64,000 bases of DNA from a virus (IMGVR_UViG_3300044797_000185:53837-117836), one strand, 5' to 3'; numbered from the stretch's first letter, positions 10,996 to 56,230 are shown. Program-made: numbers and translations. The notes: generated by a model not told the origin, from the sequence alone.

Positions 10996-11178
10996 ATGGA
11001 TCATGACATCTTTTCTGATTATTTTTGTATTTGTGGATGTCTTTACGAAGATCATGCTGATCACGAGGATGGTTGGTGTATGGGATGCTTTGTTCCACCA
11101 GACATGATACGATGTGAAGCATTTAAGTTAGACAACTTAAAGTATTTAGAACAACAATATGAACGAAGAACAAAATAA
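10996..11178 (+). CDS. Cys/His microprotein, DNLxYLE family
   Basis: CICG..H..CMGC..C..F.LDNLKYLEQQYE. Confidence 0.75.
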   Translation: MDHDIFSDYFCICGCLYEDHADHEDGWCMGCFVPPDMIRCEAFKLDNLKYLEQQYERRTK

Positions 11179-11404
11179 TTTCCCTTGTAAGTGTGGTCAT
11201 GAAGAAGTTCGTCATGGTATTGAAGAAGAACTTTACGGTGGGTATGTTTGGCTTGATGATTTAAATAAAGAAGTTTGGCAGGAGGATTCACAACCTATAC
11301 CCATTTGTTATGATTGCAATGGTTTTTGTGTATTTGGATCAATGAATAATTTAGAATACTTGGAATGGAAACATGCTCAATCACAATCATCCAGCAAAGA
11401 CTGA
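11159..11404 (+). CDS. Cys/His microprotein, DNLxYLE family
   Basis: PCKCGH..H..CYDC..C..MNNLEYLEWKH. Confidence 0.75.
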   Translation: MNEEQNNFPCKCGHEEVRHGIEEELYGGYVWLDDLNKEVWQEDSQPIPICYDCNGFCVFGSMNNLEYLEWKHAQSQSSSKD

Positions 11405-11552
11405 TATTCCATGTACCTGTGGACATCCAAGTGATGTTCATAGAGGATATGATCCTTATCATTGTTGGAGCTTTGGATGTTTTTGTGATGCATATGTTCC
11501 AGATAAATTAAAGTATTTAGAAAAACAATATGATATACGAAATTCAAATTAA
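11373..11552 (+). CDS. Cys/His microprotein, DNLxYLE family (59 aa, not in ORF track)
   Basis: Own translation: PCTCGH..H..C..GCFCDAYVPDKLKYLEKQYD. Confidence 0.7.
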   Translation: MLNHNHPAKTDIPCTCGHPSDVHRGYDPYHCWSFGCFCDAYVPDKLKYLEKQYDIRNSN

Positions 11553-12984
11553 TAATGTTAAATCTCAAATAATGCAGCCTCTTCCAGAGGTTGTAAGTAA
11601 GGCTTTACGTTCTAAGCTATCCGCAGAGATGGTTGGGGCCTTATTTGCACGTCGGGCTAATCCTTATGCTGGGGTGAAATATTTTTTTACTCCAAAGACT
11701 CAGATGTTTCCTACTGGCATGATTCATTTGGTACGGGATGTACTTGATAAATTTCATCTTGAGTATGAACACATTGATTGTCGTCCTTCCGTACAGTTGG
11801 GGCAGGAATTGCCTTTATTTGATGTACAGCTAAGAGATTATCAATTAGGGGCAGTGAATTTGGCTGTACAGAAGCAACGAGGAATTATCAGAGCTGGTAC
11901 AGGTGCGGGAAAGACAAGCATTTTGTCAGGTGTTATCGCCAAACTTAATGTTAAGACGCTCATCCTTATTCATAAGACTGATATTTTTTATCAGTTAATT
12001 AAAAATTTTGAACGAACTCTGAAAGTTCCAATTGGACGAATAGGTGATGGAGAATGTGACTTTCAAAATGTGACTGTTGCAATGGTTCAAACTGTCGCAC
12101 ATGTGTTTGATCCTAAAGTAAAGGTGTTAGCTAAGGATAACAAGATATTGGCAGAAAAGAGTGAAGCAATTAAACAGTTTCTTTCAGAAGTAGAATGTGT
12201 ATTAGTAGATGAAGCTCACCATATAGCAGCTGATACATTCTGGGATGTGATGCAAGGAATTCCAAAAGCCTTATATAGAATAGGGGTAACAGCAACGGCC
12301 TTTCGTGAAGATAATATGGATATTATGCTAGAAGGAGCTTTAGCTCAAAAGTTTGTGGATATTTCTTCATCTGATTTGATTGACCGAGGTTTTTTAGTGC
12401 CACCCACAATTTATTTATATCCTGTTGATCATCCGAGAAGGCAGAAAGGTGATCCTTATAGCCTTGTATACAGTGAAGAAATTGTTCAGAATGTAGACCG
12501 TAATCATACCATATGTAATCTAGCTCTTAAAGCAAAACAGGCAGGAAAAGCTGTATTGATAGCTGTAACACAGATTGAACATGGAGAGATATTAGAAAAA
12601 ATGCTGCAATCTGTTGATCCCTCTGCTATATTCGTAAATGGGCAGTCTAAGTCTGAAATGAGACAAAAGACATTGAAAGAACTTGGTAATGGAGTCAATA
12701 GAATTGTCATTGCTACAAATATTTATAGTGAAGGTGTTGATATGCCAGCTTTATCGGTGCTTGTTAACGCAGCAGGGGCAGCATCTGGTATTCATTCATT
12801 GCAATTACTGGGTCGTGTGCTCAGAAAAGCTCCAAATAAAGCTAAAGCTTGGGTAGTAGATTTGCAGGATACTGGTAAATTTTTAAATAACCATTCTAAG
12901 GAAAGAGTTAATATCTATTCGACAGAACCACGATATCAATTAGTTCCTGTTAAGACTATACAAGAGGTGGATTTTAATGGTTAA
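11530..12984 (+). CDS. Superfamily II DNA/RNA helicase
   Basis: LRDYQ, AGTGAGKT, DEAHH, TAT, QLLGRVLR. Confidence 0.95.
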   Translation: MIYEIQINNVKSQIMQPLPEVVSKALRSKLSAEMVGALFARRANPYAGVKYFFTPKTQMFPTGMIHLVRDVLDKFHLEYEHIDCRPSVQLGQELPLFDVQLRDYQLGAVNLAVQKQRGIIRAGTGAGKTSILSGVIAKLNVKTLILIHKTDIFYQLIKNFERTLKVPIGRIGDGECDFQNVTVAMVQTVAHVFDPKVKVLAKDNKILAEKSEAIKQFLSEVECVLVDEAHHIAADTFWDVMQGIPKALYRIGVTATAFREDNMDIMLEGALAQKFVDISSSDLIDRGFLVPPTIYLYPVDHPRRQKGDPYSLVYSEEIVQNVDRNHTICNLALKAKQAGKAVLIAVTQIEHGEILEKMLQSVDPSAIFVNGQSKSEMRQKTLKELGNGVNRIVIATNIYSEGVDMPALSVLVNAAGAASGIHSLQLLGRVLRKAPNKAKAWVVDLQDTGKFLNNHSKERVNIYSTEPRYQLVPVKTIQEVDFNG

Positions 12985-13621
12985 GATAATTTGTATTAGT
13001 GATACACATACTTACGAAAATTTTGAAGTACCTGACGGGGATATTCTTATTCATTCTGGAGATATTTCATTTAGAGGTACTTTTGCAGAAATGAATAGAG
13101 GCATGAGATGGCTTAGTAAGTTTCCCCATAAGCACAAGGTATTCGTTTGTGGAAACCATGACTGGCTGGGTGAGACAGATCCTTTATTGATGCGAGAGTT
13201 GGCAGAGGAGAATGGGGTCATTTATTTGGATGATAGTGGCATTGAATTAATGGAACTTCGAGTTTGGGGAAGTCCTGTTCAACCAGCGTTTTGTAATTGG
13301 GCTTTTAATAAACAACGTGGTGAAGAGATTGCTAGACATTGGGCAAAAATTCCTGATGACACGCAAGTACTTGTTACTCATGGTCCTCCAATGAGTATTC
13401 TTGATTTAGTAGATAAAGGAACTTCCCAGGAAGCACATGTTGGTTGTGAAGAACTTCTAAAACGAGTAAATCAATTGAAGGATCTTCGTTTGCATATTTT
13501 TGGGCATTTGCATGATAATAATGGTCAATTTAAGGATTCTTTTGGTAAACTTTTTGTTAATGCTGCTATTTGTTCAGAAGAATACAAACCTATTCAATCC
13601 CCCCGCATAATTACCCTCTAA
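12977..13621 (+). CDS. Calcineurin-like metallophosphoesterase
   Basis: SDTH, HSGD, GNHD, THGPP, FGHLH, VNAA. Confidence 0.95.
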   Translation: MVKIICISDTHTYENFEVPDGDILIHSGDISFRGTFAEMNRGMRWLSKFPHKHKVFVCGNHDWLGETDPLLMRELAEENGVIYLDDSGIELMELRVWGSPVQPAFCNWAFNKQRGEEIARHWAKIPDDTQVLVTHGPPMSILDLVDKGTSQEAHVGCEELLKRVNQLKDLRLHIFGHLHDNNGQFKDSFGKLFVNAAICSEEYKPIQSPRIITL

Positions 13622-13630
13622 AAATATCCC

Positions 13631-13659
13631 TTGACAGATTGTTATTTACCTGCTATACT
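13631..13659 (+). promoter_or_regulatory. sigma70 promoter, extended -10, driving the structured RNA
   Basis: TTGACA-N17-TATACT, TGC before -10; predicted +1 near G13666. Confidence 0.85.
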
Positions 13660-54911: not shown

Positions 54912-55131
54912 AGGAACACAGCATTCAGAAGAGACAAAAGCAAAGATTGCAGCAGCAAAGCTTGGTAAGACATTTACAGATGAGCATTCTCAGGCCATTA
55001 GTGCCGCTTTAAAAGGTCGAAAGAAGACTACTGCTCACAAGTTAGCCATTTCTGAAGGAATCAAAGCTGCCCATGCTAATAAGCAAGTAACAGCTTTGGA
55101 TGCCGAAGGTCAAGGAACGACAGTAGCATGA
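54904..55131 (+). CDS. Stand-alone NUMOD3-type DNA-binding protein
   Basis: HSEETKAKI..GK..T.EH..IS..LKG.K.T..HK..IS. Confidence 0.75.
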   Translation: MRKGTQHSEETKAKIAAAKLGKTFTDEHSQAISAALKGRKKTTAHKLAISEGIKAAHANKQVTALDAEGQGTTVA

Positions 55132-55331
55132 AAGTAAAAAATGCCATATTCTTACTCGCAGGTGTGATTATCGGCTGGGTCACAGTACCTTTTCTAAGAG
55201 CTGATTCAGAAGGTAATACATATAAGGATCTACTTCATAAGATGATTGGTATTGTGACGCAGATCCAAATAACAAGCGCAGAAACTGCTGCTAACACACA
55301 AGCCATAAAAGAGAAATTAGGAGCCAAATGA
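55128..55331 (+). CDS. Small membrane-anchored protein
   Basis: N-terminal TM segment. Confidence 0.55.
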   Translation: MKVKNAIFLLAGVIIGWVTVPFLRADSEGNTYKDLLHKMIGIVTQIQITSAETAANTQAIKEKLGAK

Positions 55332-55582
55332 GTATGAATAGCAAGCAAACTTATGAAGTTATGTTTGATCTGTTGCTTTCGGAAGAGCTTTCATTTAATT
55401 CTTCCTCCGCTACTGAGCATAATATTAAAACATCGATGAAAAGAATACTGGGACGAGCAATTAAACAAGGTCTTCTGAGAAGTTATTCTGGACTTGTACT
55501 TGATGAAGATTTGAATGTTCATTTTAGTATGGTAGATGCCGATAAGACAGAATTTTCCCTTATTCTTTATTACGGAAAATAG
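55328..55582 (+). CDS. Hypothetical protein
   Basis: SD AGGAG, ATGA overlap. Confidence 0.55.
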   Translation: MSMNSKQTYEVMFDLLLSEELSFNSSSATEHNIKTSMKRILGRAIKQGLLRSYSGLVLDEDLNVHFSMVDADKTEFSLILYYGK

Positions 55583-55617
55583 TTTCGTACAATTGCTGGG
55601 CAGAGAACGTTGATAAA

Positions 55618-55974
55618 ATGGGAGTATTGATGTATCTATTGAAATGGTTATTGGTTGGGTTTACTTCTCCATTTTGGTTTCCATTAGTTTTATTATGTGT
55701 AGGATTTTGTGTGCTTATTTTAGGATCTGTTGTATTGGTTGCTTTACTTCTAAGTTTCTTTTTAATAGTGTGGGTTTTAAAACTTTTTCACACGACATAT
55801 TACGGTCTTATAAATGCTCGTAAAGAAGTATTACAAGAAATTGGAAACGGTTTAAATAAGAATGTTCCCTGGTGGAGACTTTTACGTTTGATTGTTAATA
55901 GACATTTAAAGCAGCTCAAAGATTTTAAACAGTATGATGATTATGCCACAGGAGAGGAAGAGATTGATGAGTAA
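55618..55974 (+). CDS. Membrane protein
   Basis: Long hydrophobic N-half. Confidence 0.55.
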   Translation: MGVLMYLLKWLLVGFTSPFWFPLVLLCVGFCVLILGSVVLVALLLSFFLIVWVLKLFHTTYYGLINARKEVLQEIGNGLNKNVPWWRLLRLIVNRHLKQLKDFKQYDDYATGEEEIDE

Positions 55975-56230
55975 TCATGATGCCTTTGGCCCGATAGATG
56001 AAGAAGCTGAGTTATTAGTAAAAGCATTGGCTAAATGTCGAATTTGTAAGCATATAAAAATGGCACATTCTTTTGTAAAGGCTCAAAAAGGACGATGTAT
56101 AGATGCAATGGTGACTAAAGAGGGTAAATACTTTCAATGTCTTTGCAAAGAATATACCCCTTTAGATAATCTTGAGTATTTAGAATGGAGAAATGACCAA
56201 AAGAAGAAGACCAGGAAAAATAATTCATAG
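55967..56230 (+). CDS. Cys/His microprotein, DNLxYLE family
   Basis: CRICKH..AH..C..CLCKEYTPLDNLEYLEWRND. Confidence 0.8.
   Translation: MSNHDAFGPIDEEAELLVKALAKCRICKHIKMAHSFVKAQKGRCIDAMVTKEGKYFQCLCKEYTPLDNLEYLEWRNDQKKKTRKNNS

Follow-up and report, generated by a model that had tools for sequence, protein, structure and literature searches.

The closest described parallel to the genes discussed here is found in Bacillus phage G, where a lineage-specific expansion comprises ~35 copies of a small zinc ribbon for which transcription-factor or DNA-binding roles have been suggested (Iyer et al. 2021, PMC7824862); it is the only published parallel that we found. Our subject is a family of small Cys/His-rich proteins that share a constant C-terminal motif, here called the tail, in the virus record IMGVR_UViG_3300044797_000185 (117,836 bp, CheckV completeness 61%). 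The right-hand 64 kb of this record is the stretch that was analysed, hereafter the window, and coordinates are counted from its first nucleotide. When the expansion was checked in the phage G genome (NC_023719) it gave 34 matches, and the zinc ribbons (352-371 kb, loci L040-L066) carry an invariant C-terminal helix motif, YWKENDRYLxKIL, after a variable middle. In both cases a single large phage carries dozens of diverged paralogues, most of them arranged in tandem, and the proteins join a Cys knuckle pair through a variable middle to a constant C-terminal helix, with an N-x-x-Y-L core common to both. The phage G domain differs in forming the C-terminal part of ~200-aa frames, in its CxxC...CxxxC pattern without the His pair and in carrying its motif at the very end. 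A hidden Markov model (HMM) of our family has no match in NC_023719 at E<=1, and hhalign of the family against the phage G zinc ribbon (gp32, YP_009015343.1) gave a probability of 0.4% and an E of 0.14. Judged by these comparisons, the two expansions have no detectable homology, but they share the same layout of a head followed by a constant helix.

A constant docking module joined to variable binding domains is also a feature of the poxvirus ankyrin/PRANC proteins and the cellular F-box proteins. The resemblance lies in the many paralogues with a constant C-terminal module on variable parts, and there is no relation in sequence or fold. The T4 proteins gp33, gp55 and gp43, with their clamp-binding epitope, offer the best precedent for a C-terminal docking motif that can be interchanged (PMC2988020). 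That epitope lies at the extreme C-terminus, whereas the tail of our family is predicted to be helical and is placed 12-32 residues before the protein end in all 178 proteins retrieved. Moreover, the polymerase here is of family A, and no DnaN-type clamp was found in four records, which makes a phage-encoded sliding clamp a less likely target of the tail; a search for the gp45 family gave no match in the records, nor in the controls.

The initial annotation of the window had proposed a Cys/His family with a common C-terminal motif on the strength of nine open reading frames (ORFs). All nine translate as described (Table 1), and the family turned out to be larger than was claimed. With the HMM built from the nine copies, the whole record yields 18 ORFs at E<1e-3, every one encoded on the + strand and half of them (9/18) outside the window; a wider HMM gives 20 in this record and 27, 54 and 45 in three relatives, again all on the coding strand (the present record is G000; G001, G002 and G004 are related IMG/VR phage records). 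A search of four related IMG/VR records for the family gave 17, 37, 6 and 43 matches, and a profile search of 1.84 billion metagenomic representatives yielded 1056 clusters at E<=0.001. The DNA context of the copies comes from four IMG/VR records; the metagenomic homologues are proteins only. None of the library searches led to a characterised family. Scans of the nine copies and 129 homologues against Pfam, PHROGs and NCBIfam produced scattered sub-threshold matches only, the ESM Atlas returned nothing except unnamed viral clusters, neither tblastn with two members as queries (50,697 cultured-phage records) nor a pattern scan of GTDB genomes found a match, and a literature search on the motif strings turned up nothing relevant. 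Longer or fused forms were also searched for, and a single 144-aa protein was found. The ORFs are genuine genes of an undescribed family of 50-110-aa proteins, found only in viruses.

Two possible identities were considered and rejected. One source names P0011 as bL32, yet 0/129 members match a ribosomal family in Pfam or NCBIfam, and a PDB profile search with the family gave a best E of 0.09, the value for bL32m, whose match covers the first knuckle only. The other candidate was the catalytic chain of ferredoxin-thioredoxin reductase (CPC...CPC...CHC), which gave a PDB profile E of 0.13-0.16 and 0/129 Pfam matches; the first Cys pair of the family, which varies between CxC and CxxC, also speaks against it.

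The head follows the pattern Cx1-2CxHx4H...C...CxC and the tail, in a C-terminal helix, the pattern DNL(E/K)(Y/F)LExxY; in alignment the nine copies read C-x1-2-C-x-H...H...C-x-C...[YF] and then NLx[YF]LE. Within the head C8 and C10 are invariant, and H12, H17, C31 and C38 are conserved at no less than 90%. Its seven conserved ligand positions suggest that the head binds a metal, probably zinc. The claim that all nine copies share the head motif stands for most of them; copy 44858 has no second knuckle, and the first His is replaced by Cys in 10996 and by Asp in 45660. In the tail, with its Asn taken as position 0, N0, L1, the aromatic residue at position 3, L4 and E5 are conserved at 97-100% in the 178 retrieved proteins, and Tyr8 at 76%. 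Read from the sequence, Leu1, Leu4 and Tyr8 would form an a/d/a' stripe, and with N0, Y3 and E5 included, conservation would span more than half of the helix circumference. Lys-rich ends also occur in the family.

Structure prediction, which had been proposed at the outset, was carried out on copy 39043. The AlphaFold2 model, based on a 129-sequence alignment (predicted local distance difference test, pLDDT, 78; predicted template-modelling score, pTM, 0.49), shows an N-terminal knuckle, a beta-hairpin at residues 17-31 and a C-terminal helix at residues 45-57 that corresponds to the tail. Searches with this 59-aa model, by Foldseek against the PDB and BFVD and by VIA-align wide, revealed no credible fold match. 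Model and alignment together predict that the tail is an amphipathic C-terminal helix of ~12 residues in which Asn-Leu-x-Tyr/Phe-Leu-Glu is nearly invariant.

In the four related genomes the coding strand contains 142 instances of the tail pattern, versus 11 on the opposite strand. In the present genome it is found in 21 ORFs, three of which have other heads; all three lie in the window and include the TNLEYL-ended gene 18670, whose tail had been noted earlier and is real. Across the genomes ~15 proteins combine unrelated heads with a tail 12-35 residues from the end, and several of these are orthologous between genomes. Conversely, heads without a tail are kept as orthologue groups. Two such cases in the window, 16292 and 43243, had been described as relatives with the zinc motif alone; they are true tail-less members (wider HMM E 1e-5 and 5e-4), each with a tail-less orthologue, and they bring the family heads within the window to 11. 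Because tail-less heads are conserved and tails are also borne by unrelated heads, head and tail are two separable modules, and the earlier description of a variable zinc head with a constant tail fits the evidence well.

The conserved Cys-rich protein with a tail-like motif, the 216-aa product of 8965-9615, is a special case. The motif is retained as xLEYLEA in ~95 homologues, most of which have T or G at position 0 where the tail has N. The model of this protein (pLDDT 76) shows NLEYLE as the final helix of a helical bundle predicted with confidence (pLDDT ~89), and the fold matches, to an MCM-like zinc ribbon with a weak score and to a generic helical bundle, offer no functional lead. The motif may thus be an integral helix and possibly convergent, since most homologues carry T or G rather than N at position 0.

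The variation in third codon positions between copies had been taken as a sign of conservation at the protein level, and this is borne out. The codons at N0, L1, Y3, L4 and E5 follow genome usage, and all six Leu codons are used, including switches between TTR and CTN. For 26 reciprocal-best orthologue pairs the median proportion of nonsynonymous differences (pN) is 0.32 versus 0.73 for synonymous differences (pS); where it could be computed, omega (dN/dS) is 0.12-0.43, these values being upper bounds only because synonymous sites are saturated. Selection acts at the protein level, with each paralogue under purifying selection, and the family claim stands in this respect as well. Paralogues within this genome are only 28-48% identical, the best match of 88/126 copies lies in another genome, and most copies in the relatives sit in tandem arrays. 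In view of the low paralogue identity, the best matches across genomes and the purifying selection, the expansion is ancient with occasional relocation, and is not an ongoing proliferation.

Phage operons contain overlapping cistrons with translational coupling, in which the overlaps are usually of 1-8 nt (ATGA, TAATG). The present family resembles them in that the next start lies inside the preceding ORF and is kept in relatives, with Shine-Dalgarno (SD)-like words weak or absent. It differs in that the overlap amounts to 14-60 nt and the start falls at a fixed codon of a conserved motif (43-51/133 tails, four genomes). Counting the register from the first base of the tail Asn codon, +25 is the second base of codon 8, and an ATG stands there in 56/133 tails. 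This ATG opens at least 45 codons in 43/133 tails, or 51/133 when GTG and TTG are included, versus 7/399 for control positions in the same frame. The present genome has a +25 start in eight tails, five of them in the window exactly as described in the initial annotation (Table 1), which had also stated that most copies overlap the upstream stop; 8/9 overlap the end of the upstream ORF.

The codon usage at this position is equally instructive. At Tyr8 the ratio TAT:TAC is 65:6, versus 76:35 at Tyr3 (Fisher p=2.3e-4), and the base following the Tyr8 TAT is G in 52/65 cases. Three genomes share the register at the polA site, where G001 has GTG as well as Ser in place of Tyr8. An SD-like word is present at 38% of family starts versus 70% of long genes. 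For 13/113 tails there is no gene start nearby, and the tail of copy 55967 is conserved in G000 and in metagenomic orthologues despite having no downstream start. From the TAT bias at Tyr8, the G after TAT and the GTG kept in G001 we conclude that the protein motif is primary and that the overlapping start imposes a further constraint on the third base of codon 8, the choice of TAT being under selection. With its start at a fixed register, this conserved protein motif offers a clear natural example of dual coding. Translational coupling of the downstream gene to the microprotein, as originally suggested for core operons, is something we infer from gene anatomy: the fixed register, its retention across genomes and the TAT bias at Tyr8 are all consistent with it. 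Frameshift fusion of the microprotein to the next protein was rejected, the downstream ATG or GTG being conserved at the register, and no slippery site was seen in the tails that were read.

The comparison of empty and occupied sites, another of the checks proposed at the outset, reveals precise insertion between stop and start. The sites in front of the helicase and of the SbcC-like gene hold a family copy in 4/4 genomes, and the site in front of polA does so in 3/4, G004 having an HNH-like gene there; the primase, NusG and a 725-aa structural-region gene have a copy in front of them in this genome only. At the NusG and 725-aa sites of the other genomes the neighbours directly adjoin each other (TAA-TT-ATG, or an ATGA overlap). 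In this genome the copy at these sites begins at the stop of the upstream gene and, lacking its own stop codon, runs on to terminate out of frame within the downstream gene, the N-terminus of which is unchanged. Copy 45660, whose closest relative lies in a tandem array of another genome, has an extension after the tail that supplies a GGAG in front of nusG. No repeats, duplications, nuclease or integrase were seen at the junctions inspected. The copies are cassettes without a stop codon, placed exactly between abutting genes.

Table 1. Family copies, other proteins ending in the tail, and genes that start within a tail (coordinates in the window).
Feature	Coordinates	Strand	Remarks
Family copy, 60 aa	10996..11178	+	Atypical CxCxC head; tail DNLKYLEQQY; Tyr8 codon holds ATG of copy 11159
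Family copy, 81 aa	11159..11404	+	Tail NNLEYLEWKH; CAT-G holds ATG of copy 11373; orthologues in G002 and G004
Family copy, 59 aa	11373..11552	+	Tail DKLKYLEKQY; TAT-G is ATG of helicase 11530; site occupied in 4/4 genomes
Family copy, 100 aa	36482..36784	+	Long insert between knuckles; TAT-G of tail is ATG of SMC_N-like gene 36768; site occupied in 4/4 genomes; 14 metagenomic orthologues
Canonical family copy, 59 aa	39043..39222	+	TAT-G of tail is ATG of polA 39200; modelled by AlphaFold2
Family copy, 49 aa	44858..45007	+	Second knuckle lost by internal deletion; precedes primase; site empty in G001, G002 and G004
Family copy, 67 aa, GTG start	45660..45863	+	Exactly between primase stop and NusG start, which abut in the other three genomes
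Family copy, 56 aa	47403..47573	+	Precedes gene 47566; site occupied in G000 and G004, empty in G001 and G002
Family copy, 87 aa, possible start 55934	55967..56230	+	No gene start within 120 nt downstream
Tail-less family head, 62 aa	16292..16480	+	Tail-less orthologue in G001, 54% identity
Tail-less family head, 70 aa	43243..43455	+	Orthologue in G002
Cys-rich protein of another family, 216 aa	8965..9615	+	Ends in SNLEYLEAIFDKK; motif is last helix of modelled bundle
SSLY-repeat protein, 283 aa	18670..19521	+	~25 tandem four-residue units (SSLY, SSLD, SSLR), then tail TNLEYLGSKY; next gene starts 37 nt past tail Asn codon
Cys-free protein, 67 aa	43028..43231	+	Carries tail TNLQYLDGLY
Helicase (ResIII/DEAD/Helicase_C)	11530..12984	+	ATG within tail of copy 11373
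SMC_N-like (SbcC-like) protein, 213 aa	36768..37409	+	Weak match to C-terminal part of SMC_N; ATG in tail of copy 36482
Family A DNA polymerase (polA)	39200..41791	+	ATG within tail of copy 39043

With respect to the surroundings of the family, the GC content is ~35%, and ORFs of at least 100 aa are nearly all on the + strand (115 versus 15 on the - strand). The family A DNA polymerase is only ~30% identical to that of any cultured phage, and a close bacterial relative of the GMP-reductase gene, looked for as a lead to the host, was not found. A tRNA-Ile gene with anticodon TAT lies at 10775-10864, just 5' of the first copy. Concerning the downstream genes named in the initial annotation, Pfam confirms the primase, the NusG-like protein and the helicase, but the gene taken for the C-terminal half of SbcC has only a sub-threshold match to SMC_N (21.8 bits versus a cut-off of 40). 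The SbcCD-like region to which it belongs (35327-37409) seems to be split into SbcD (Metallophos), an 84-aa ORF without a Pfam match, the 100-aa family copy and the 213-aa SMC_N-like piece, and no coiled-coil or hook part was recognised in it. Between the SbcC-like gene and polA, at 37366-38210, there are an HNH endonuclease-like ORF and an 88-aa PQ-loop membrane protein.

A zinc-binding domain is absent from the DnaG-type primase (44998-45663, 221 aa, DNAG_N plus Toprim) and from its orthologues in the three relatives; directly upstream of the primase lies the degenerate family copy 44858. Stand-alone primase zinc ribbons occur in large phages (Iyer et al., PMC7824862). The interval 45853-46825 encodes the NusG-like protein (NusG plus KOW) and, after it, a 147-aa protein that matches sigma-70 region 4, and this pair suggests that the phage retunes the host RNA polymerase. 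The 725-aa gene (genome 44646 onward; L002:3647-3700) begins with M-A-x-x-N-Q-T-N-[IL]-E-[YA]-[LI] in 4/4 genomes; the tail-like N-[IL]-E-Y-L string at its N-terminus could be due either to chance or to microhomology at the insertion site.

What might the tail do? Considering its modularity and a conserved arc that would exceed half of the helix circumference, we propose that it is a protein-protein interaction plug common to many heads, and we give about an even chance to the complete picture, in which a two-module family of ancient expansion is carried on stop-less junction cassettes with an embedded start and the helix is a shared interaction surface on varied heads. Such a plug would join the different heads to one common partner, be it a hub protein of phage or host or the heads themselves, while the variable head loops would supply different specificities. 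The phage would thereby express, together with its replication and early genes, a diverse library of binders or regulators, and owing to the embedded start, ribosomes would have to read the microprotein for the next cistron to be translated. Several considerations weigh against this proposal. Some 20-54 proteins with a single plug would compete for one site; the same motif is modelled as an integrated bundle helix in the 216-aa protein, so that the tail could be mainly structural; and in an AT-rich genome the ATG follows almost automatically from a conserved Tyr-Asp/Glu, so that the coupling may be opportunistic. A more specific version, in which the 20-54 heads dock in trans through the helix into one receptor groove, with the 216-aa bundle as candidate receptor and the dual-coding Tyr codon as selected, seems to us unlikely.

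The interaction helix has to be weighed against a simpler structural role, in which the tail is the last helix of a small zinc domain and each paralogue works on its own, perhaps as a sequence-specific transcription factor or a structural DNA-binding protein, with no common partner. We consider this somewhat doubtful, even though the AlphaFold2 model puts the helix directly after the head, the motif of the 216-aa protein belongs to a bundle, the Lys-rich ends would suit nucleic-acid binding and the phage G family is likewise a zinc ribbon with a constant C-terminal helix for which DNA-binding roles have been proposed (PMC7824862). It is difficult to reconcile with heads that persist tail-less as conserved orthologue groups, with a tail that occurs on ~15 unrelated heads, one of them without any Cys, and with a conserved surface beyond what packing on one small head would need. 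The fixed +25 start, the TAT bias, the register kept with GTG in G001 and the scarcity of SD-like words at family starts would also be expected if the tail were a cis-acting translation device, as RNA or nascent peptide, in which the protein mattered little. This is quite unlikely, however, in view of the synonymous variation across the tail, which matches genome codon usage, the conservation of tails with no nearby start (copy 55967 and its orthologues included) and the conservation of heads in >1000 clusters, with whole proteins under purifying selection.

As to a selfish or mobile mini-cassette that is still spreading in the genome, the initial annotation had spoken of a proliferating one, and the cassette part of that description holds: between related phages there is precise gain or loss at junctions, with insertion exactly between stop and start, and the nearest relative of the primase-NusG copy sits in another genome's tandem array. 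Proliferation does not fit with the lack of recent duplicates (within-genome identities being low and 88/126 best matches lying elsewhere), nor with an omega <0.45 and the clean junctions, where inspection revealed neither nuclease, integrase nor flanking repeat; ongoing spread is accordingly very unlikely. Constant tags are known from the capsid-targeting sequence of the T4 internal proteins and from encapsulin cargo peptides. By the same logic the tail could be a sorting signal, for instance for loading small proteins into the capsid for co-injection, and a constant short tag on unrelated, small and often basic proteins is the only argument for it; since most copies lie among replication or early-type genes and are apparently coupled to them, this idea strikes us as highly improbable.

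Up to 1 in 6 genes in this clade of large uncultured phages belong to one family that is in no curated library, and its expansion ranks among the largest paralogue expansions seen in phages. If the helix is indeed a common plug, these phages would possess a toolkit in which diversified binders obey a single docking rule; it would be of use in studies of host takeover and also as a natural scaffold. Should docking in trans also prove true, the family would constitute a phage-encoded library of adaptors or competitors, with the translation of each replication gene tied to that of its microprotein.

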